A stretch of DNA of 64,000 nt from assembly GCA_020632255.1 (NCBI GenBank), contig JACKFX010000001.1, positions 184,216 through 248,215 on the forward strand, read 5' to 3'. The stretch's first letter is position 1; each line of letters opens with the position of its first letter. Below, in pieces: positions 29,419-59,178 of this stretch. The stretch comes from Pseudomonadales bacterium (lineage in GTDB: Bacteria; Patescibacteriota; Microgenomatia; UBA1400; PJMF01). The position numbers and the translations under genes are program-made. The notes under the pieces are model-generated. The model was not told the origin of the DNA, did no database searches, and worked only from the letters and a program-made list of their open reading frames with translations.

Positions 29419-29702
29419 GGTTTTTTCCTTTGCTCTTTCTGTGTTGTAGTTACAAAAAGAACCCTCTCAGGTCCGCGATACTTCGCGAACTTGAGAGGGT
29501 TCTCTACTTTTTCAGTAGTAACGGTACCACCTCTTCTTTTTCTCGGTTCCTGCTGTTACGGGCTTACCCGGACTGGTCTAGTGTGCTTGTGAGCTGCACA
29601 AGCGGTTCTTCAGTCTGCGTTTTTGCTTTTGGTTTGACCCAAGGGGCAAAATTGTTGAGCGATGATCAACATGGGACGCAGGTAGTTATCTCAGTTATTA
29701 TA
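29419..29702 (-). promoter_or_regulatory. ileS leader: putative T-box riboswitch with promoter and intrinsic terminator/attenuator
   Basis: On the minus strand: TATAAT (29697-29702); stem I-like helix (CTGCGT...ACGCAG) enclosing ATC-containing loops; T-box-like AGAGGTGGTACCGT (29521-29534); perfect 12-bp terminator AGAACCCTCTCA...TGAGAGGGTTCT (29458-29503) then TTTTT, immediately before the ileS ATG. Confidence 0.55.
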
Positions 29703-30252
29703 TAGTATAGTGTCAACCTCGATTAGTAGTAATTGATTGAACGCTAGTTTGTCCAGGTTATGCCTTTAACAAAGGCTTTAGTATGTTCTTCTGGAATTTC
29801 AGTTGGAATGATTTGATTGTCAGCTGATTCGAACATGATCATATTTGGAGCAATCATGTCGCCTGCAATTGCATATTTACTCCATCTAAAGACATGGGAA
29901 ACTGGACTTTTTTATTAGTGTCATCAAAAAAAAGTAAAACTTATTTTAGACACATAAGTAGGCTAGCAATGATCTAACTTCTTGCATTTTCTGCAATACA
30001 AATCAATTTGACCCCTGAAGGCTTTCATTGTACCAAGAGTATGTCTGGTACATACATTGAGATCTTTGTCACATAAATTATTTATATTTCTCATCAGGCT
30101 GGTATAGCTTTCTTAAAAGATATGACTCAGTTACCAAAATATCAGAAAAAACAGAAGATCTTTAGTTATTTTGATACATGCTTTGCAAATTATATAGTAA
30201 AAATTCGAGAGTGTGTTGAAACTACCTTAATTAGGATTCACCTAATAACGCT

Positions 30253-49350: not shown

Positions 49351-52300
49351 CTAGTACACAACTAATTCTACTGTATGATCTGGGTTTTCTCTATTATATC
49401 TATCAACCGCTGTTCTCATTTCAGAAATTTCATACTCAGCTATACCATTACCTAGTGATAAGTGAATTGAGGTAATGTCAGTCATATCTAAGCTTCCATG
49501 AATTTGAATTTCTGAATACGAACTATCGAGTGCAGGTACCAGTGATGGAACTGAGAAGTCAGTCTTGGTTGCCTCCCAAAATCTGATCACATTGTATTTT
49601 TTAAGTGCAGACAAGTAATGAGGTTTTTGAACTGGAGAAGGCGGTCGGTCGTTATTTAAACTATCACCAAAAAGGAAAGTAGACTTCTTTTTGGCCTCAT
49701 TAGCAATTCTACAGCCGGCACGACCATATTGTACGACTGTATTTTCGGGAGGATTTTTTCCCACAGAGTTTAAAACGCCATTATTATCTGGGGTAAAGTA
49801 GCCATAAATAGTTCTTGATTGAGGTTTGTAACTTGTTTCATCTGGAAAACCAAAAGTTCTTAGTTCAAAAGCAGCTCTGTAAGAATTAGAAAGACACCCT
49901 CCTGAAGTTTGGGTTTCAAACTGGCTCTTCCATCTTTTGTCTCTTGGAAGAATATGATTCAGGAGAACGCTTACATCTGTGGCTCTAAAGAGTTGTGATT
50001 GGTCCATAGAAACTTCAGTATAGCGTTGAATCTCATCTAAGAATTCTATCAGTGATAGCCCTTCTTTTCTAAGAATTGTTCTTATGTCTCCATGCTCTTC
50101 GATAGATTCTAAGAATCTTTGCTCGTAAATGAGGATATTCTTAAGCAGAGTGATCTCAAGATCAGGATTTGCTTCGACGTTCATTTTTACACTATCCCAA
50201 TCAGCCATATATTCGATGGTGACATCGGATAATTTATTAATATCGAGTTTGTTTACTTTCTCATCATCGGGGAATTTACGTTTTATTTCAATAAGTTGAA
50301 AGAGAGCCTTTTCTTTAACTTTTTCAAAGGCTTCGGCTTGTTCTGCATTTCTTTCTCTTCTGAGAGAAAACATTCTTTTTCGCTTTTCAATTCTTTCTTT
50401 CGAAAAATACGTTATATCAAAAGTCGTACCAAGATATTGTGCAGCCGAAAGGAACATATGAATTTTTTGATGTTCTTGTGCATATGTGATTAGTTCTTTG
50501 GTTTTTACATCCCTGTCATATCCGGAAAGGCTGTCATAATCTATTCCCAAGTAGGAAGCAACAATCTTATTTTCAACCACGCTAAAGGCAAAAGTCATCA
50601 TTTGTCGAAGATCTGTTAGATCACTTTCGTTTAAGTCTGTGGGCAAATCTTCAATTAGTTTAATGTTGTTAACACGTTCTTCGATTGATTTTTGTCTTTC
50701 AGTAACTTGCTCATTTGTAAAGTACGACAGATTAATATCATCATGAGTGTACTTCATACTTGCAAGCAACTTATCGATGATGGATCTTTTTCCAGCAAGC
50801 TCTATTACTTTGCTAATAGTTGAATTAAGGTAGTGACCAGAAACATCCGAGTATTTGATTCCAATCAGGCCGCAAATTTTTTTTATCTGCTGATTTTCCT
50901 TAACAACACTATAAATAGTTTCAATCAGTACTTCAGTATCCGATGAATTTAAGTTTTCAGGAAATTGGGTGCTTAGTTGTTCTATTTTTCTTTTTCTTTC
51001 TTCACCAGCACTACTCGTGAATTCAGTGATATCAATTTCCTCTTTGATATATTTGATAGCAGAAACAAATTTTTGCATCGCATTGTTATTCTGACTTGAA
51101 TCAAGCATTATATGAACTTTATTGTGTAAATCTCCATCAAGAGATGCATATTCGATGTTTAAGTAGTGTGAGAGTAGTTTGACTTCGACAGAAGCAAACG
51201 ATTCATTTGAGATAATTTGCTTTAAGCAAACAAAACTGTAGTCGTCAAATGTATTCGGGATACTTTCGTTGATTTGAATTTGTTCAGCCATTTCAACGAT
51301 TATTTGATTTCTTCTCTCAATTTCTGCAATTGAGAAAGAATCAAGACCATCATCGTTTAAGACGAATTTTGCAGCTGCGATAAACTTGTTAAGTTGTAAC
51401 CTCTTTTTTGCAATAACAAGCAGGTGCTCAACCATATCACTCTCATAGTAATCATCAATTTCAAAGTAATCTACACCGACAAAAGCGCTGATCAAGACAA
51501 TCTGACTTTTAGAGAGAGCATTTTTGGTTTTTTTCTTCAATTCTTCAAATAATTCTGGGTCAAGATCTTCTGGGAAGTCGTTAACGGATTCCAGCATCTT
51601 TTGTTGACGTTTCTCAATATTGCTTTCGGTAAATTGGGAACAATCAAGATCAGGATTAAGAGAACTAAAAGCGGAAAGGAATTTATTGGTAAGAAAGTGC
51701 TCTTGTGAGTATTTTAGAAGTTTACCTGCTTTTTTGATGGCGCTAACATCACTGAACTCATCAGGACCTATATTCATATATGCTAGTATGACCCTGATAT
51801 CATCCTCAGAAATGTTTTCAAGAACAAGAGGGTATAAGATGTGGTATGTTAATTCATCCAGTTTCTGAGGAAAATCCTCATTAAATACAATTTTATCAGC
51901 TTTTTCTTGGACAATCCTTTTTGCTGCTTCTATGCTTTCTATTGTAAATTCTGATAAAGAAATATGATCAATTGTCACCTCAACAGCTGACAAAAATTTA
52001 TTAACCTGTGCTTTTTCTTTGACTAATCGAAGTGTATTCTGCACTTTATCACTTATATAATAGCCTTCGACATCTTCCATACTAAGACCTAATGCATCTA
52101 AAATTTGCATAAGTTCAGCTGCAGTTATTTCAAACTGGATTTCTTCAAGAAGTCTAGTTTCATAGTAAGCGTCAATAGTAGTTGGATATTTATTAGCTGT
52201 TGCCTCCATCTCCTTTTGTTTGTTATCGATATATTCTTGGGTGAATCGCGTGAGATCGAGGTCTTTTTCGAGGTACACTACGGCTGAAAGAAGTTTATCT

Positions 52301-53952
52301 AGTAGTGAGTGTTCATTTGCATACTCAATAAGACTAGTGATTTTTTGATGGGTAAAATCGCCCTCTAGACTGTCGTAGTCAGCGCCAATATAGGCAGCGA
52401 TAACTTTTGAGTCCTCTTTCTCAATTTTCCAAGAGAGCTCACTAACTAAGTTATTAAGATACAATTGGCTCACTGATTTTGGATACTCACTACGCAATGT
52501 AATTGCTATTACGGATTCTTCAATATATCTACGTCTTTTATCAATATCTTCTTTTGTATAGTATGTCAAGTCAAGTCCATCAAAGAGAATGCTAATTGCT
52601 GAGAGAAATTTGTGTGTCACTTTTTTTTCTTGGACTTGATTGAAAATATTTGCAATTTCTCTGGAATAAGTTCGATCTTCAATACTTACGTATGGAATAT
52701 CAAGAAAGGTGCATAATGAGTTGATTATGTCATCATCAAGAAATGCATCCTTAATCTCTTCAAGAAGAATGTTAAAACTAGTTTGATCTAGTGTAGGATA
52801 AAAAACATCTTGAGATGCTTCTAAAGCAGCAGCTCTCTTTTTTAAAGATTCTTTTGTAAAAATCTTAAAGTCACCTGGGATATATTCTTTTCGGTAACTT
52901 GCGAAATAGATTACAGCTGACAGAAGCTTATGCATCACTGCATGATCTTGTGCATATCTAATTATGTTTTTTGCTTCAGTAGAGTAGTGTGACGCTTCCA
53001 CCTCTTCGTAGTCTGCTCCAATAAATGCAACGATTCTTTTGGCTTCATATTCAGAATGTATATTTCTTGAAATGACTCTCGTTAGTTTTGTTATACTTAA
53101 AACATCAAGTGATTCTGGGTAATCTTCTTCTTTGGCAGCAAGCTTTTCATTCAGTTTGAAAATTTCGTGGTAAAATTCTAAATCGACCTCATCTTTTTTG
53201 ATGTATTGCACTGCTGATAAAAACCTATCAAAAAGAGAATTGCCTTCTGCAAATTCAATCAGCGATGCAAATTCAATCTGCGATGAGATGCTTGTCGTGT
53301 GTGTTTCAGAAACAATCAACTCAGGATCTGCCCCGATATATTGAGCAATTACCTTTAATTCTGACTTTGTAAGTTTGTGTTGTAATTGTTCTGTCAGTGT
53401 ACGAATGTCATGTCCACTTAATGATTTTGGAAATTCATCAATGTAGGGAATTTTATCAGCTTCTTCTACTAGTTCCTCTTTTTCTCTCCTAGTTCTTGCT
53501 ATATCAAGCGCCATCAGTCTTGCGGGGGAGTCCGCATATAAACCAGGTGTTGAAATAGAACTATATGGTTCGCGTCTAGTCAATATATCTCTTATATCGT
53601 AGGAATCAAAAGGAGCATATAAATCGGATTTTTTCTCTTCTGATGTAGGGAATTTAATATCTGGGAAATCTTCTCCAATTCTAATTTTAAGGTCATCAGT
53701 TTCAAACCTAATACCTGGGAAATCTTCTCTAATTTCAAGGCCCTCGGTAGTAGCGGGTGTCATTATATCTACATCACCTAAAGGCTCTGAAATAGTTTCT
53801 TCTGGGTGAGTTTTTTTCATTGCGCGTCGAAGCATTCTAGCGAGTATACTTTTGCCAAATGAATACGGTGTATCGTCATCACCTATTTTGTAGTCAGGTT
53901 TATCTGGGTGTGACTCAATTAGCTTCTTGAATTCGTGAAATTCTGTTGTCAT
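49351..53952 (-). CDS. giant (1533 aa) repeat protein: unique N-terminal region, ~10 tandem ~105-aa novel repeats, distinct ~250-aa C-terminal domain
   Basis: Repeats share (I/V)xx(Y/F)(I/L)G(A/I)DY(D/E), then ~30 aa later (K/R)(F/L)LSA(V/I)xY(I/L/F), then D(L/I)(T/D)x(F/Y)(T/S)xE. No signal peptide, no known motif seen. TATAAT 7 nt upstream of the ATG suggests a leaderless transcript. Confidence 0.7.
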   Translation of the reverse strand: MTTEFHEFKKLIESHPDKPDYKIGDDDTPYSFGKSILARMLRRAMKKTHPEETISEPLGDVDIMTPATTEGLEIREDFPGIRFETDDLKIRIGEDFPDIKFPTSEEKKSDLYAPFDSYDIRDILTRREPYSSISTPGLYADSPARLMALDIARTRREKEELVEEADKIPYIDEFPKSLSGHDIRTLTEQLQHKLTKSELKVIAQYIGADPELIVSETHTTSISSQIEFASLIEFAEGNSLFDRFLSAVQYIKKDEVDLEFYHEIFKLNEKLAAKEEDYPESLDVLSITKLTRVISRNIHSEYEAKRIVAFIGADYEEVEASHYSTEAKNIIRYAQDHAVMHKLLSAVIYFASYRKEYIPGDFKIFTKESLKKRAAALEASQDVFYPTLDQTSFNILLEEIKDAFLDDDIINSLCTFLDIPYVSIEDRTYSREIANIFNQVQEKKVTHKFLSAISILFDGLDLTYYTKEDIDKRRRYIEESVIAITLRSEYPKSVSQLYLNNLVSELSWKIEKEDSKVIAAYIGADYDSLEGDFTHQKITSLIEYANEHSLLDKLLSAVVYLEKDLDLTRFTQEYIDNKQKEMEATANKYPTTIDAYYETRLLEEIQFEITAAELMQILDALGLSMEDVEGYYISDKVQNTLRLVKEKAQVNKFLSAVEVTIDHISLSEFTIESIEAAKRIVQEKADKIVFNEDFPQKLDELTYHILYPLVLENISEDDIRVILAYMNIGPDEFSDVSAIKKAGKLLKYSQEHFLTNKFLSAFSSLNPDLDCSQFTESNIEKRQQKMLESVNDFPEDLDPELFEELKKKTKNALSKSQIVLISAFVGVDYFEIDDYYESDMVEHLLVIAKKRLQLNKFIAAAKFVLNDDGLDSFSIAEIERRNQIIVEMAEQIQINESIPNTFDDYSFVCLKQIISNESFASVEVKLLSHYLNIEYASLDGDLHNKVHIMLDSSQNNNAMQKFVSAIKYIKEEIDITEFTSSAGEERKRKIEQLSTQFPENLNSSDTEVLIETIYSVVKENQQIKKICGLIGIKYSDVSGHYLNSTISKVIELAGKRSIIDKLLASMKYTHDDINLSYFTNEQVTERQKSIEERVNNIKLIEDLPTDLNESDLTDLRQMMTFAFSVVENKIVASYLGIDYDSLSGYDRDVKTKELITYAQEHQKIHMFLSAAQYLGTTFDITYFSKERIEKRKRMFSLRRERNAEQAEAFEKVKEKALFQLIEIKRKFPDDEKVNKLDINKLSDVTIEYMADWDSVKMNVEANPDLEITLLKNILIYEQRFLESIEEHGDIRTILRKEGLSLIEFLDEIQRYTEVSMDQSQLFRATDVSVLLNHILPRDKRWKSQFETQTSGGCLSNSYRAAFELRTFGFPDETSYKPQSRTIYGYFTPDNNGVLNSVGKNPPENTVVQYGRAGCRIANEAKKKSTFLFGDSLNNDRPPSPVQKPHYLSALKKYNVIRFWEATKTDFSVPSLVPALDSSYSEIQIHGSLDMTDITSIHLSLGNGIAEYEISEMRTAVDRYNRENPDHTVELVVY

Positions 53953-55350: not shown

Positions 55351-56760
55351 CTACTCTAGCATGGAGGCAATGTATGCTTCAAGATCGGCGATCTTGATTC
55401 GGACTTGATCTGTTGTGTCACGGTCACGTACAGTGACACTCTCATCTTCGAGAGATTCAAAGTCAACGGTAATACACATTGGGGTTCCAATTTCATCCTG
55501 ATACAGGTAGCGTTTACCAATATTTCCCCGCTCGTCCCAAGTTATAGTAAACTTGGCTGAGAGTTGGTTGTAGATTTCTTTTGCCTTGTGTACGAGTTCG
55601 GGTTTGTTCTTGAGTAGTGGGAACACAGCAGCCTTGTAGGGAGCCAAGGATGGTTTGAGTTTAAGCACCGTACGGTTTCGCTCTGCATCTTCTTCATATG
55701 CATCGGTTAAGACCATCAAGAAAGCACGGTTAATACCCAGCGCAGGCTCGATCACATGAGGAATAAAAACTTCGTTCGTATGTGGATCTCTGTACTCAAG
55801 TGATTGGCCTGAGTGTTCCATGTGTTGCTTGAGGTCATAGTCAGTTCGGTAGGCAATGCCCCAGAGTTCCTTCCAACCAAAACTAAAGTTGTAGTCGAGG
55901 TCGTAAGTGTCTTTACTGTAGAAGCTGCGTTCGGCATCAGAGTGACGGCGCCATCGCAGGTTCTCTTCTCGGACACCAAGTACAGCAGTCACAAAAGTGT
56001 GCATGTCGAACTTCCACTCTTCAAGGAGCTCTTCCCACTTGGTTTGGTTTGGGTTGAAGAAGTACTCGATTTCTGCTTGTTCGAACTCGAGGGTTCGGAA
56101 GACAAACTGACCGGTAGTAATTTCATTGCGGAAGCTTTTACCCATCTGACCCACACCAAACGGCAACTGCACTCGAGTAGAGTCTAAAATATTGCGGAAG
56201 TTAGTAAAGATTCCTTGGGCGGTTTCTCCGCGCATGTAGATCTTAGATTTGTCGTCGGCAACAGTACCGATGGCGGTTTCAAACAGGAGGTTAAAGGCTT
56301 TTGGCTCGGTGACGGCGTTACCATCAGGGCTCAAGATCTTGTTTTCGGTAATGAAAGCTCCCATTTCCTCTACGGAAAGGTCTTCGACTACCATACTTTC
56401 AAACTCAGTTTTGCCATTTTTAACCTGGCGTGCTATCCAGTCTTCAATTAAGTGATCAGCGCGGTAGCGTTTTTTGGTGACTACATCATCTACTAGAGGA
56501 TCACTGAATGATCCCACATGGCCAGACGCAACCCAGGTGTCAGGATGCAGTAAGATTTGTGAATCAAGACCGACCATATCTGCACGGCGAGAAATAAAGG
56601 TATCCCACCAGGCATTCTTAATGTTGCGGAGCAACTCAGAACCTAATGGACCGTAGTCGTATGAGTTGGCGAGACCACCATAAATGTTTGATGTGGGATA
56701 GACGAACCCGCGGCGTTTGGCGAGAGCTACAATAGTGTCGAGTGATGGTTGCTTTGGCAT
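55351..56760 (-). CDS. glyQS: glycyl-tRNA synthetase, alpha2 (GlyQS) type
   Basis: MPKQPSLDTIVALAKRRGFVYPTSNIYGGLANSYDYGPLGSELLRNIKNAWW, class II motifs. Start moved to the internal ATG (56760) because the upstream in-frame extension overlaps the leader RNA. Confidence 0.85.
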   Translation of the reverse strand: MPKQPSLDTIVALAKRRGFVYPTSNIYGGLANSYDYGPLGSELLRNIKNAWWDTFISRRADMVGLDSQILLHPDTWVASGHVGSFSDPLVDDVVTKKRYRADHLIEDWIARQVKNGKTEFESMVVEDLSVEEMGAFITENKILSPDGNAVTEPKAFNLLFETAIGTVADDKSKIYMRGETAQGIFTNFRNILDSTRVQLPFGVGQMGKSFRNEITTGQFVFRTLEFEQAEIEYFFNPNQTKWEELLEEWKFDMHTFVTAVLGVREENLRWRRHSDAERSFYSKDTYDLDYNFSFGWKELWGIAYRTDYDLKQHMEHSGQSLEYRDPHTNEVFIPHVIEPALGINRAFLMVLTDAYEEDAERNRTVLKLKPSLAPYKAAVFPLLKNKPELVHKAKEIYNQLSAKFTITWDERGNIGKRYLYQDEIGTPMCITVDFESLEDESVTVRDRDTTDQVRIKIADLEAYIASMLE

Positions 56761-56966
56761 AGAACCCTTTCTGGTTTTACCCCTTGGGATATAAATAATC
56801 CCTACAGTACTAATCATACGTGTAGGGACCCTGCCGGGCGGTTCCACCCTCGTTCCACGCGGTTGCATTTGCAGGTGCGTGACACTTTTTTGTGAGAATA
56901 CTTACTTCCTTACTTGAGAGAAAGGTCACTTGCCAAGGGTGAAAGCTATCTGGCCAAATTATAGCA
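56761..56966 (-). promoter_or_regulatory. glyQS leader: putative glycine T-box riboswitch with extended -10 promoter and terminator
   Basis: On the minus strand: TGCTATAAT (56958-56966); specifier-like CTTGGCAAG with GGC followed by A; T-box-like AGGGTGGAACCGCC (56836-56849); terminator TCCCTACA...TGTAGGGA (56799-56828) then ATTATTTAT. Confidence 0.55.
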
Positions 56967-57212
56967 CATATCCAACCACTTTTGCACTGACTATGTTGTC
57001 AGTCACTCTCCTGACTATACGTTAGCAAGAGTGGCCACAACAAACTGATCTTTAACAGGGTTATTAGGTTTCTCCATATAAGAGATGAACGTTTGGCTTG
57101 TTGGCTACATAAAAAGCAACACAGAGCTTATATATCTGTAGGTTGTGTGTTGTTTTTTACTGTCGTCCAGCAGTAAGCTGGACTTTTTGAATTTACTTTA
57201 AGGAGAATTGAA

Positions 57213-57794
57213 ATGAACTTTTACGGTTTTGATCGCACAGGAAAGTTGGTTTTTGGATTTGAAGTCAAAGAAGAAAAAAATGAACGCAGCAGCCATCCGC
57301 AACGCAAAGTTGTAGTTGGCAAGCGTTTCTTAAATGTTCGTTGGCCTGTACAAGCCAACAAGGACGGCCGAATCTTGGCCGGCTCCTTCGATTTATCCAA
57401 CCGGTTCCCCACCATCGTCAATAAAGGCGATGATGGGGGAAATAATACTGCCATCATCTTCGATGCTTCTGGCTTGCCGATGTGCAAGCTGGAAGTTAAG
57501 ATTTATCGTGAAAACGAAGAAGTCGAGCCAGAAGTGTATTTGGCTGACTTTGGGGAAGGAGTTGGGACGAAATTTGTTACAGCTCTTGTAACACTTCATG
57601 AGGGTGATGAGGTTGAAGTAACTTCATCCTATCGCGGCGACGAGTACGTCGTTGCAAAAATCACCTGGGAAGATGGAAAGCCGGTTCGCTGGCAAGCCTC
57701 TTCTCAAGAACTGGCGAAGATGAAAACTGCCCAGTCCCACAAAACGGCTGACCGCACGCGGCGGCGCCTGAATTGGGAACAAAAACATAAATAA
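57213..57794 (+). CDS. hypothetical protein (193 aa)
   Basis: Strong Shine-Dalgarno (AAGGAGaattgaaATG). Terminator follows directly. No recognisable motif. Confidence 0.5.
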   Translation: MNFYGFDRTGKLVFGFEVKEEKNERSSHPQRKVVVGKRFLNVRWPVQANKDGRILAGSFDLSNRFPTIVNKGDDGGNNTAIIFDASGLPMCKLEVKIYRENEEVEPEVYLADFGEGVGTKFVTALVTLHEGDEVEVTSSYRGDEYVVAKITWEDGKPVRWQASSQELAKMKTAQSHKTADRTRRRLNWEQKHK

Positions 57795-57846: not shown

Positions 57847-59178
57847 CTACATGAGTTTTTTTCGGCGCATATTCCAGTACTCGCCTCTTCTGCATAATAA
57901 CTCTTCAGCTAGCTCTGGATGTGACATGAGTTGCTCAACTGCAATTTCCAAGAGTAACGTATTCTGTGAAGACTTCACCAGTAAAATATCACCCTGTTGT
58001 AAAAACGTTTCCAAGAAGTCCGCAGCTTCAACTGCAGTCGCAAACCACTGGGTTTGGATATTTTTCCGTTCTAATACTGGTAAGCCATATTGTTTCATTT
58101 GTGGTCCCACCAAAAACACGGCTTGGCAGTGTCTAGCGGCTGCCTCTGCCACCGTTGTGTGTTCGATTTCTGCCATACTTCCTATTTCCCTGATATCTCC
58201 TAGGAGTGCTATGCAGCGTTTAGCACCAAGCTTGGGGAGCATCTCGAGCATTTCAACAGTTGGTTTGGTTGAAGAATTATAGCTACTGTCCAAGATGGTT
58301 ACGCCGTTTTTTCCTTCGATGAGCGTTGATCGGCCTGGTTCAACCGTAAAATGCGTCTCGATATTGCGAATAGCTTTCTTAATCGGAACATCAAATGCCA
58401 CAGCAGTTGCCAGCGCAGCGGCAAAGGTATATCCGTAATGCTCAGCCAGGGCATAGTCCTTGATAAAGAGTGGGTGTTCTTTTTCAGAAACCTCGAATAC
58501 AAACTCCGTTCCTTTTAAGCTAGGTATTGAGCTAATAATTCTGATGGCAGCATCTTTATTTTCGCCAAAAGATACCACCTGTGCAGAAACGTTTGGCAGC
58601 AAATCAGCCAGCTCTTTTTGATCCGTATTAACAACTGCAGTGGCAGTTGACGGGATCTCAGTAACAATTCGTCCCTTTTCCTCAGCGATAAGCCTGGTAA
58701 GTTGGGCACGACGTTTGACAGGATCTGTTTCAGTCACCAAAAAGTCAAATGGTTCTGAGTGCATGGGCGCGGCATTGAGCATAATGCCAATATTTGGCTT
58801 CAAAATAGTTAGTAGATATGCCATGTTTTTTGGAGGCAGTGGGCTGTCGATACCCATTTCGGCTACTAAGACATTATAGCGTTCCCAGTTAGTCAACAGT
58901 TTCCAGATAGTCAAAACTGCAATTCTAAGCCAATCTTTGATTGAAAAATCGTGTGGTTTGATGCCGAGTATTGATAACGGCAGTCCTGTTTCAGAGTTAG
59001 CATTAAAGGAATACTTCAGCTTAAACTCTGGCAGTAAGGCAGCAACGACTGCGTGTTGGGTCGACGTTTTCCCAGCACTGCCGGTGAGGCCCACGATGGT
59101 GGGACGATTTTTGAGGAGCTGCAGTTTTGCAGCCAGCCGAATATAGGTCAAAAAGATCCAGGTAATTTTTTGTTTCAT
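57847..59178 (-). CDS. murF: Mur ligase family, MurF-like (UDP-MurNAc-tripeptide--D-Ala-D-Ala ligase)
   Basis: P-loop GLTGSAGKTST, NANSETGLPLSILG (MurF N.NN.IG.PLT motif), LDSSYNSSTKP and LLGDIREIGS (MurF DxYNANP/LGDMxELG equivalents). Confidence 0.6.
   Translation of the reverse strand: MKQKITWIFLTYIRLAAKLQLLKNRPTIVGLTGSAGKTSTQHAVVAALLPEFKLKYSFNANSETGLPLSILGIKPHDFSIKDWLRIAVLTIWKLLTNWERYNVLVAEMGIDSPLPPKNMAYLLTILKPNIGIMLNAAPMHSEPFDFLVTETDPVKRRAQLTRLIAEEKGRIVTEIPSTATAVVNTDQKELADLLPNVSAQVVSFGENKDAAIRIISSIPSLKGTEFVFEVSEKEHPLFIKDYALAEHYGYTFAAALATAVAFDVPIKKAIRNIETHFTVEPGRSTLIEGKNGVTILDSSYNSSTKPTVEMLEMLPKLGAKRCIALLGDIREIGSMAEIEHTTVAEAAARHCQAVFLVGPQMKQYGLPVLERKNIQTQWFATAVEAADFLETFLQQGDILLVKSSQNTLLLEIAVEQLMSHPELAEELLCRRGEYWNMRRKKLM

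Follow-up and report, generated by a model that had tools for sequence, protein, structure and literature searches.

A reduced glycine T-box leader with an ultrashort Stem I probably precedes glyQS in a patescibacterial genome

How much of a T-box can be missing from a leader that still reads its tRNA? This question is raised by a leader of about 190 nucleotides (nt) that precedes glyQS, the gene for glycyl-tRNA synthetase (GlyRS), on contig JACKFX010000001.1 of GenBank assembly GCA_020632255.1. The window, i.e. the whole stretch of DNA that was analysed, comprises 64,000 nt (64 kb; contig positions 184,216 to 248,215). In the canonical T-box, a Stem I of about 100 nt carries the specifier codon on its 3' side, within an internal loop, and is topped by a double T-loop platform that binds the tRNA elbow (PMC11404447, PMC7583486). 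The leader considered here is probably a tRNA-Gly-responsive transcription attenuator of the T-box type, with a pared-down plan and an ultrashort Stem I. A glycine T-box leader in front of the GlyRS gene had already been proposed in the initial annotation of this DNA, and the proposal is supported by the discriminator, by a GGC-A element and by conservation among relatives.

The 3' half of the leader reads as a canonical, textbook T-box discriminator, which is composed of the following elements.

56883-56887, minus strand: purine string AAGUG (the 5' RRRxG), present as AAAG(U/A)G ahead of Stem III wherever a leader has one
56856-56881, minus strand: Stem III, CACGC-acc-UGC-aaau-GCA-acc-GCGUG, bipartite, 26 nt, -8.8 kcal/mol
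56851-56855, minus strand: GAACG after Stem III, which supplies the 3' AA
56837-56850, minus strand: T-box sequence AGGGUGGAACCGCC, matching the consensus AGGGUGGNACCGCG at 13 of 14 positions
56824-56850, minus strand: antiterminator with helix A1 (AGGG/CCCU), bulge UGGAACC (56840-56846), helix A2 (GCCC/GGGU) and loop GGCA
56789-56830, minus strand: intrinsic terminator with the hairpin at 56830-56797, its CCCU being common to helix A1
56789-56798, minus strand: U-rich tail UUAUUUAUAU, interrupted (U7 in relatives)

The T-box sequence, given as AGGGTGGAACCGCC in the initial annotation with the same 13 of 14 matches to AGGGUGGNACCGCG, was found again at 56850-56837, and its core GGTGGAACCGC was located by a pattern search at 56848-56838. 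Helix A1, a 7-nt bulge (UGGN followed by ACC) and helix A2 can be formed from this sequence, with -8.9 kcal/mol for the antiterminator in a constrained fold. The UGGA of the bulge is available for the 3'-UCCA of a tRNA, which supports the earlier reading of the element as a contact for the acceptor end. UGGA fits U73 of bacterial tRNA-Gly, just as UGGU fits A73 of tRNA-Ile. The base of A2, next to the bulge, is closed by the pair G56839·U56828, so that the basal G·U regarded as the aminoacyl sensor is present together with the RRRxG-Stem III-AA motif defined previously (PMC7583486, PMC7778990).

The antiterminator competes with a terminator hairpin of -16.7 kcal/mol, formed by the arms TCCCTACA (56828-56821) and TGTAGGGA (56806-56799); the region 56828-56799 carries the arms UCCCUACA and UGUAGGGA. 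Both structures use the 3' strand of A1 and are mutually exclusive, the terminator being the more stable one. A fold comparison had been recommended for the terminator hairpin and U-rich tract of the initial annotation, and its outcome supports the hairpin as a competing terminator; the tract, for its part, is rich in U but interrupted. A scan for consensus terminators did not report this terminator, given the limits of the scan on loop and bulge.

The recurrence of these elements was examined in glyQS upstream regions from species-representative genomes, metagenomes and contigs that encode the closest GlyRS proteins. A T-box core upstream of glyQS was found in 14 leaders including that of the window, and the ordered set of elements recurs in the 13 other leaders. 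The subclade of the window (L029/L030, L031, L032/L033, L001, L038, L039, L040 and the 5'-truncated L037) encodes GlyRS proteins with 78-84% identity, and the more distant leaders (L002, L003, L005, L006 with two copies, L015 and L023) belong to GlyRS proteins with 56-67% identity. A covariance model, R1, was built from only the seven distant leaders and roughly calibrated. Searched against the 64-kb window, it returned a single match, which is this leader (26.1 bits, E ~3e-4) and which reflects the discriminator only, as R1 misaligned the specifier hairpin of the window and missed a second leader, upstream of ileS. The recurrence in 13 leaders and the single match of R1 in 64 kb argue for more than chance. 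Sites resembling GGTGGNACCRC are more frequent in the window than expected (12 found vs 3 expected), and only two of them, those of the glyQS and ileS leaders, lie outside reading frames. The others were set aside, being located in long open reading frames (ORFs) or in a CTP-synthase-like frame (pyrG, by eye; 667-776, off the window end).

In the alignment of the subclade, GAAC-N-AGGGUGGAACCGCCCG..AGGGUCCCUA shows no change outside the A2 loop, whereas its surroundings vary. Helix A2 reads ACGA/UCGU or GCGG/UCGU in other groups, which are compensated changes. At the Stem III site each subclade leader has a hairpin made from a different sequence (CCACAUC/GAUGUGG, CACAC/GUGUG, CUUCU/AGAAG and others). 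The distal arms of the terminator covary as well (CUACA/UGUAG, CUAGU/ACUGG, AAUACU/AGUAUU, AACACA/UGUGUU and AAGCAAU/AUUGCUU), and in 13 of the 13 transcriptional leaders the terminator exceeds the antiterminator in stability. The antiterminator can be aligned both to model R1 and to positions 187-219 of the T-box family model RF00230, which also takes the region 56856-56881 as its Stem III.

The terminators bear on whether such a leader might instead control translation by sequestering the Shine-Dalgarno sequence, as the actinobacterial class II T-boxes do. An ultrashort Stem I has so far been tied to translational T-boxes (PMC7583486), the U-tract of the window is weak, and one relative offers an apparent example. 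L006 (700-1090) carries tandem T-boxes, both with a mini Stem I (loops GUUGGCAA and CUGGAAAA); a terminator ends the first one, and in the second the AGGAGG of a small ORF (ATG at 1085) preceding glyQS is apparently sequestered, by pairing of CCCUUUUU with AAGAAAGG. The Shine-Dalgarno-like AAAGGG of the window (56770-56765), however, follows 27 nt past the hairpin and is unpaired with the T-box region in the folds, and all subclade relatives have a GC-rich hairpin with U7, which in L001, L032 and L037-L040 is placed 70-180 nt before the start codon. Translational control of glyQS in the window is regarded as highly improbable, and a transcription attenuator remains the preferred reading.

The codon that such an attenuator would read is carried by a small hairpin near the 5' end of the leader.

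56926-56942, minus strand: specifier hairpin UCAC-CCUUGGCAA-GUGA, 4 base pairs (bp) with a 9-nt terminal loop; the stem shows covariation
56932-56934, minus strand: glycine codon GGC on the 3' side of the terminal loop, with the following purine A at 56931

In the initial annotation, cttGGCAag had been taken as the glycine specifier in a stem I-like context. The first part of this claim was confirmed: GGC-A is present at 56934-56931, some 17 nt away from the inferred start of the transcript, and glycine codons only occur at this place among the 14 leaders. The second part has to be revised, as GGC sits in a terminal loop and not in the canonical internal specifier loop. In 14 of 14 leaders the specifier is found in a terminal loop of 7-9 nt, and in none at the internal-loop (S-turn) position. 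GGC is the loop triplet of 11 leaders and GGA that of two, namely L015 and the second copy of L006 (L006b), and the ambiguous loop of L023 can be read as GGU-G or GGC-A. A glycine codon results in each case, so that all changes are synonymous. The loop ..UUGGCAA is conserved, with the variant UUGGCAC in L002. Its 3' side is fixed throughout the 14 leaders (GGN, a purine, one nucleotide, then the stem), and its 5' side varies by 0-2 nt.

The stem that presents this loop differs from leader to leader and is rebuilt by compensation, with the variants UCAC/GUGA, CCAC/GUGG, UCC/GGA, GUC/GGC, UCUC/GAGA, GCCC/GGGC, AGG/CCU, GGG/CCU, UUGG/CCAA, AGUC/GGCU and AAGAG/CUCUU. Pair counts in fixed columns failed on the MAFFT alignments A1-A3 due to the variable lengths of loops and stems, and anchored or trimmed arms and per-sequence folds were used in their place. 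The summed helix length of the 14 leaders is 51 bp vs 19.3±4.5 for shuffled arms and 22.1±5.4 for swapped 3' arms, a count that is biased towards structure by the choice of the hairpin register for each sequence (loops of 7-9 nt). This length was reached in 0 of 5000 trials of either control. With the arms trimmed flush to the loop, 100% of the cells are paired, both sides vary in all three pairs (19 cells), and a covariation score of 1.44 was obtained vs 0.27 for shuffles, none of 500 shuffles reaching it.

A link to the canonical Stem I is provided by the seven more distant leaders (L002, L003, L005, both copies of L006, L015 and L023), in which the hairpin has a kink-turn (K-turn) at its base. 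The whole Stem I of L003, GUAGC-GAU-GA-A-AGG-CUUGGCAA-CCU-A-GA-GCUAC, consists of a C-stem, a textbook K-turn, 3 bp and the terminal loop, and the other K-turn leaders follow the same plan. Since the hairpin of these leaders sits on a K-turn, where the specifier region of Stem I lies, its homology to Stem I becomes explicit. The subclade of the window has retained the hairpin with its loop and has lost the K-turn and the basal helix. Two candidates for a remaining K-turn, a UGA bulge in L001 and an outer GUUCUU/AAGAAC helix in L040, were found by eye and dismissed, as neither has GA..GA. About 29% of T-boxes have been reported without a K-turn (PMC11404447), which argues that this element is not strictly defining. 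A sigma-54-like reading of the TGGCA in the loop was rejected, too, as a TTGC is missing at the required distance and the motif is part of the transcript.

Whether the loop triplet acts as a codon can be judged from the second leader of the window, which precedes the isoleucyl-tRNA synthetase (IleRS) gene.

About 29419-29716, minus strand: ileS T-box leader, upstream of the ileS ORF 29418-26614 (TIGR00392, 846 bits)
29654-29670, minus strand: ileS specifier hairpin GUUGA-UCAUCGC-UCAAC, 5 bp with a 7-nt loop
29521-29531, minus strand: ileS T-box core AGAGGUGGUACC with a UGGU bulge
29454-29502, minus strand: ileS terminator GAACCCUCUCA/UGAGAGGGUUC followed by U5, a strong hairpin

The 7-nt loop of this leader resembles an anticodon loop and contains AUC followed by G at positions 3-6. 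In both leaders, a specifier codon that matches the regulated gene is thus followed by a purine (GGC-A with GlyRS, AUC-G with IleRS). The ileS leader further comprises a Stem II-like hairpin, GCUUGUG-cagcu-CACAAGC, and a segment CGGG-uaag-CCCG-UAA that resembles Stem IIA with the F-box; the z-score of its minimum free energy (MFE) is -5.1. It is conserved in L041 (IleRS 85% identical), with the loop UCAUCAC and a compensatory change in the next hairpin, and in L043 (73% identical) a T-box core precedes a small ORF of 130 amino acids (aa) that is followed by ileS. RF00230 gave no match to the ileS leader. Two synthetase genes with two different matching codons in the same type of terminal loop are the strongest single argument for the GGC loop being a specifier.

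A different role of the GGC hairpin has nevertheless to be weighed, namely that the discriminator senses the tRNA's 3' terminus and the hairpin serves as a protein site or folding element, with specificity residing elsewhere or being absent. Isolated truncated Stem I RNAs hardly bind tRNA without Stem II (PMC7583486). The UU..AA flanks could also close the loop on itself, as in CCUU-UGGC-AAGG (L001, L032) or CUCUU-UGGC-AAGAG (L039). Such a role is very unlikely in view of a loop triplet that is always a glycine codon with synonymous changes only, of the AUC in the equivalent loop and the matching UGGU bulge of the ileS leader in the same genome, and of the position of triplet and purine at the 3' edge of the loop by the helix, above the K-turn in the relatives, which is the canonical one. 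The GGC loop is accordingly treated as a candidate specifier in the following.

The space available for a larger Stem I is set by the promoter.

56958-56966, minus strand: extended -10 element TGCTATAAT; TG-TATA-T is invariant in the 8 subclade leaders (alignment A1)
56981-56986, minus strand: weak -35 element TGCAAA, read from the sequence

The extended -10 element of the initial annotation could be confirmed as TGCTATAAT at 56966-56958. Transcription would start at about 56951, some 7 nt past this element, which gives the leader its length of about 190 nt up to the ATG at 56760. A sigma-70 scan that required both hexamers reported no site at the leader promoter, whose -35 element is weak. 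To take this miss, or that of the terminator scan, as absence of a promoter or terminator was set aside, as both reflect the scan criteria (weak -35; bulged stem and long loop). Each of the 8 subclade leaders has a conserved TGnTATAAT 20-35 nt 5' of its GGC hairpin, and in L031 the upstream murF-like gene ends (733) about 20 nt ahead of the hairpin (start at about 750). With promoter and gene end so close to the hairpin, the 5' end of the leader offers no room for a longer Stem I or an elbow platform. In the relatives of the K-turn type the complete Stem I measures about 35 nt and directly follows TTGACA/-10 promoters. A murF-like gene is found directly upstream of the leader in the relatives. 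In the window, a divergent ORF of 193 aa (57213-57794, plus strand) without an NCBIfam match separates murF (57847-59178, minus strand) from the leader, with a spacer at 56967-57212. Just ahead of the AAGGAG and ATG of this ORF, at 57165-57215 (plus strand), a hairpin GUCCAGCAGUAAGCUGGAC followed by UUUUU is terminator-like in the scan and has a weak match to the Rfam family freshwater-2 (25.6 bits vs a gathering score of 49.9, E 0.09).

These distances also bear on the architecture favoured by the initial annotation, according to which the leader fits the canonical glyQS class. The canonical discriminator half is in line with that class, glycyl T-boxes without Stem II are known (PMC11404447), and the 245 nt of non-coding DNA upstream of TGCTATAAT in the window could in principle contribute further structure. 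A specifier in the terminal loop of a 4-bp hairpin, with no room for the platform, does not fit, though, and the extended -10 box in front of the GGC hairpin (8 of 8 subclade leaders), the murF-like gene that stops just before the hairpin in L031 and the short Stem I of the K-turn relatives all count against it. No AGAGA or UGxRA T-loop pair was seen, and RF00230 skipped Stem I in every match. The canonical architecture therefore has very little probability, and the reduced plan with a hairpin-sized Stem I is preferred.

The same reduction became apparent in the family search. RF00230 found no match in the whole window at its gathering score and none in a 600-nt segment at E<=10. Searched against the 176-nt leader alone, it yielded 20.8 bits (E 0.005), far from the gathering score of 93. 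The alignment is truncated (model positions 88-219) and good only from about position 150 to 219, i.e. Stem III and the antiterminator; the GGC hairpin was forced onto the Stem II of the model, with non-standard pairs marked. In the relatives, 12 matches of 23-43 bits were obtained, which cover the discriminator half only and skip the positions of Stem I in all cases. The initial annotation had named the lack of a covariance-model hit as a ground for abandoning its claim and, taken literally, this is what was observed (20.8 vs 93 bits). With a score so far below threshold, the assignment to the family rests on the feature-by-feature tests.

The low RF00230 score and the bias in the pair counts are among several points that weigh against a functional T-box in the window. 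The specifier hairpin alone reaches only -0.8 kcal/mol, and the MFE fold favours an 11-bp pairing (with 2 G·U) between UUUCACCCUUG (56944-56934), the 5' half of the specifier hairpin, and CGAGGGUGGAA (56852-56842) in the T-box sequence region. The window and its subclade have no C-stem, 3-nt bulge and GA..GA K-turn flanking the hairpin. The U-tract of the window is interrupted (UUAUUUAU), compared with U7 in the relatives, and the leader as a whole is the least ideal copy of the subclade. A tRNA-Gly gene is found neither in the window (only Asp and Thr) nor in the 36 loci, and L034-L036, whose GlyRS is 76-78% identical, have no T-box leader. From the literature, transcriptional T-boxes are viewed as needing the elbow platform, and a truncated Stem I as binding tRNA appreciably only with Stem II (PMC7583486).

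Some of these points can be qualified. The pairing of UUUCACCCUUG with CGAGGGUGGAA is limited to the window and L029, with a partial version in L031; it may follow from the CAC/GUG stem as a by-product or by coincidence, or strengthen the OFF state as an anti-antiterminator. The conservation upstream of glyQS that the initial annotation had asked for is found in the 13 other leaders and fails in L034-L036, and the leader is also absent from most of the more distant relatives. Its absence from L034-L036 indicates that the leader was gained or lost within the clade. In these three loci glyQS comes directly after the upstream gene, and its ATG is preceded at 18-22 nt by a box of the TGATATAAT type (TATATAAT in L035). 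Extended -10-like boxes (TGGTAATAT, TGGTAGTAT, TGCTACTAT and TGGTACTAT) are also seen in L001 and L037-L040, 27-33 nt before the glyQS ATG and between terminator and ATG, which suggests a second, T-box-independent promoter. Such a box is lacking in the window, L029 and L031, whose terminators lie near the ATG.

A T-box in decay, which no longer responds to tRNA and acts as a constitutive partial terminator or an inert leader, would account for part of this picture. The U-tract is eroded to UUAUUUAUAU vs U7 in every relative, no member of the subclade has kept the K-turn, the stability of the specifier hairpin is marginal, the close relatives L034-L036 are devoid of a leader and in several relatives the terminator is followed by another promoter-like box. 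Termination is still possible at interrupted U-tracts, however. The 27-nt antiterminator and UUGGCAA are unchanged in comparison with relatives whose GlyRS is only 78-84% identical, and the flanks are freely substituted and the helices altered by compensation only, which is the signature of continuing selection. In addition, the terminator hairpin of -16.7 kcal/mol is at least as strong as in the relatives, and the functional nucleotides are intact. Decay is thus considered unlikely, and a T-box under selection the better explanation.

The segment that connects the specifier hairpin with the discriminator was inspected for a Stem II.

56908-56925, minus strand: variable hairpin CCUU-ucucucaagu-AAGG, directly 3' of the specifier hairpin
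56888-56907, minus strand: purine-rich linker with AAGUAA repeats, read from the sequence

By inspection, neither a Stem II S-turn nor an F-box-like CCGUUA nor a conserved Stem II is present in the leader, a negative that refers to sequence motifs, as tertiary contacts may escape such an inspection. The hairpin at 56925-56908 was considered as a Stem II and rejected, being unconserved and devoid of S-turn and F-box, and was kept as a variable hairpin. Hairpins of differing sequence are possible at the same position in five subclade leaders (L029, L031, L032, L001 and L038), and a counterpart is lacking in L039, L040 and every leader of the K-turn type. AAGUAA-like repeats of the linker (56888-56915 in the window) occur twice in the window, three times in L031 and once in L003, and as CAGUAA in L029.

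In two of the distant relatives, L003 and L015, a purine-rich linker of only 16-17 nt leads from the K-turn/specifier hairpin to the T-box sequence. With about 85-100 nt, these two leaders would to our knowledge be the smallest T-boxes. Both (L003, 1295-1430; L015, 85-215) are without any Stem III, yet have strong terminators with U7-U8. Stem III has been described as indispensable in the literature.

If these elements work as they are read, the following mechanism can be proposed. Transcription would start about 7 nt after TGCTATAAT, and the small hairpin, which exposes UU-GGC-AA in its terminal loop, would be the first structure to form. Its GGC would pair with the GCC anticodon of tRNA-Gly in a loop-loop contact, which the flanking U and A may extend or stack upon. 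The linker, the variable hairpin, AAGUG and Stem III would then lead on to the discriminator. Uncharged tRNA would pair its 3'-UCCA with UGGA and hold the antiterminator (-8.9 kcal/mol), allowing readthrough into glyQS, and glycylated tRNA would be rejected by the basal G·U of A2 and the purines of Stem III, so that CCCU would be drawn into the terminator (-16.7 kcal/mol) and transcription would stop. We infer, moreover, that no protein or tertiary structure substitutes for the elbow platform and Stem II.

The two contacts of such an RNA would be the anticodon and the acceptor end. UUGGCAA is the exact reverse complement of the anticodon loop UUGCCAA; pairing or stacking beyond three bp is therefore conceivable and might compensate for the missing platform. 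A platform-deleted glyQS RNA of Bacillus subtilis still binds tRNA-Gly, with half the on-rate and in short-lived complexes (PMC5951919), which makes a natural two-contact T-box physically plausible. It would be unexpected all the same, especially for kinetic, co-transcriptional control. In translational T-boxes, the lost elbow contact is only partly offset by Stems II and IIA/B (PMC11297988).

The host is an ultra-small bacterium of the Patescibacteria, in the candidate phyla radiation. The closest labelled GlyRS and IleRS proteins come from Woesebacteria, Pacebacteria, the Microgenomates group and Patescibacteria. A metagenome-assembled genome with identical GlyRS and IleRS (P0001, P0121) is labelled Pseudomonadales bacterium, and several others carry the labels Pseudomonadales or Gammaproteobacteria, which looks like mislabelling. 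It is quite possible, though short of probable, that Patescibacteria (Microgenomates-like) carry a distinct minimal class of T-box that terminates transcription, makes two tRNA contacts and has no platform. This tentative class would also be without Stem II for glycine and, in some members (L003, L015), without Stem III.

The leader further determines where the coding region of glyQS begins.

55351-56760, minus strand: GlyRS coding sequence, 469 aa
56758-56760, minus strand: start codon ATG, based on an identical 469-aa protein on record and the NF003211 alignment
56765-56770, minus strand: Shine-Dalgarno-like AAAGGG, read from the sequence

The downstream ORF encodes a single-chain dimeric glycine--tRNA ligase (NF003211, 603 bits; alignment from residue 8). 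A longer version of 505 aa begins at an in-frame ATG (56868) within Stem III. The initial annotation had regarded the additional 36 codons as untranslated, which is borne out by the public protein P0001, identical to the 469-aa version, and by the relatives. The distance from T-box core to ATG is 88 nt in the window and 90, 71, 179, 118, 118, 224 and 127 nt in the relatives; it spans all three frames, and in-frame stops occur in 5 of 7. Since neither frame nor openness is conserved and the 469-aa protein is on record, the 36-codon extension is non-coding. Downstream of the glyQS operon, an ORF of 1533 aa (49351-53952, minus strand) contains many internal repeats of about 100 residues with recurring ...KFLSA... 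blocks.

The analysis of the leader thus corrects the start codon annotated for GlyRS, and it exposes a blind spot of standard annotation, as RF00230 misses both leaders of the window. If the reading is true, T-box regulation extends into the candidate phyla radiation, and nature already uses a platform-less and Stem II-less T-box, deemed barely functional, for kinetically demanding transcriptional control. The needs for Stems I and II in tRNA capture, as against speed and affinity, would then become testable with RNAs of about 100-170 nt. A true minimal class would contradict the rules on the platform in transcriptional T-boxes, on Stem II alongside a truncated Stem I and on the indispensability of Stem III, and it would represent the smallest natural tRNA-sensing switch. 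Compact, codon-programmable tRNA sensors of this kind would be attractive as parts for synthetic biology, provided that the leaders work as read. The open-access literature that was searched contains no report that combines a T-box with Patescibacteria or the candidate phyla radiation, TBDB entries lying outside this search, and it describes no truncated Stem I except in the translational class of Actinobacteria. The class II search of TBDB was restricted to Actinobacteria and to class I matches with a truncated Stem I (PMC7778990).

Among the known systems, the class I transcriptional glyQS T-boxes of B. subtilis, Oceanobacillus iheyensis and Geobacillus kaustophilus (RF00230) share with the leader the position before GlyRS, the GGC-A and UGGA elements, RRRxG-Stem III-AA, helices A1 and A2 with the basal G·U, the competing intrinsic terminator and the lack of both Stem II and IIA/B. 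They differ in their Stem I of about 100 nt with an internal specifier loop and an elbow platform made of AG-bulge and distal loop, none of which is found here, and in the K-turn at its base, which is absent from the subclade of the window. The enzymes differ as well, GlyRS of B. subtilis being of the two-gene glyQ/glyS type and that of the window a single chain. The engineered delta-DTM variant of B. subtilis glyQS (PMC5951919) likewise contacts tRNA only via specifier and discriminator; it was made by truncation in the laboratory and keeps the K-turn as well as the internal specifier loop, whereas the leaders described here are natural and conserved.

The closest resemblance in the 5' half is that to the class II translational ileS T-boxes of Actinobacteria, which have a hairpin-only Stem I ending at the specifier, no platform and the same discriminator core. 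Ultrashort Stem I elements of this type have been described for Mycobacterium tuberculosis, M. smegmatis and Nocardia farcinica (Sherwood et al. 2015, as summarised in PMC7583486 and PMC11297988), and according to these summaries Stem II and the IIA/B pseudoknot are essential once Stem I is truncated. The class II leaders sequester the Shine-Dalgarno sequence and carry Stem II, whereas the glyQS leader of the window ends in a terminator and has no recognisable Stem II. The ileS leader at about 29419-29716 comes nearer to class II, with its Stem II-like hairpin and CGGG-uaag-CCCG-UAA, but it is terminator-ended, too. Judged by its discriminator and its predicted mechanism, the glyQS leader is certainly a T-box, but it belongs to neither of the two architectural classes described.

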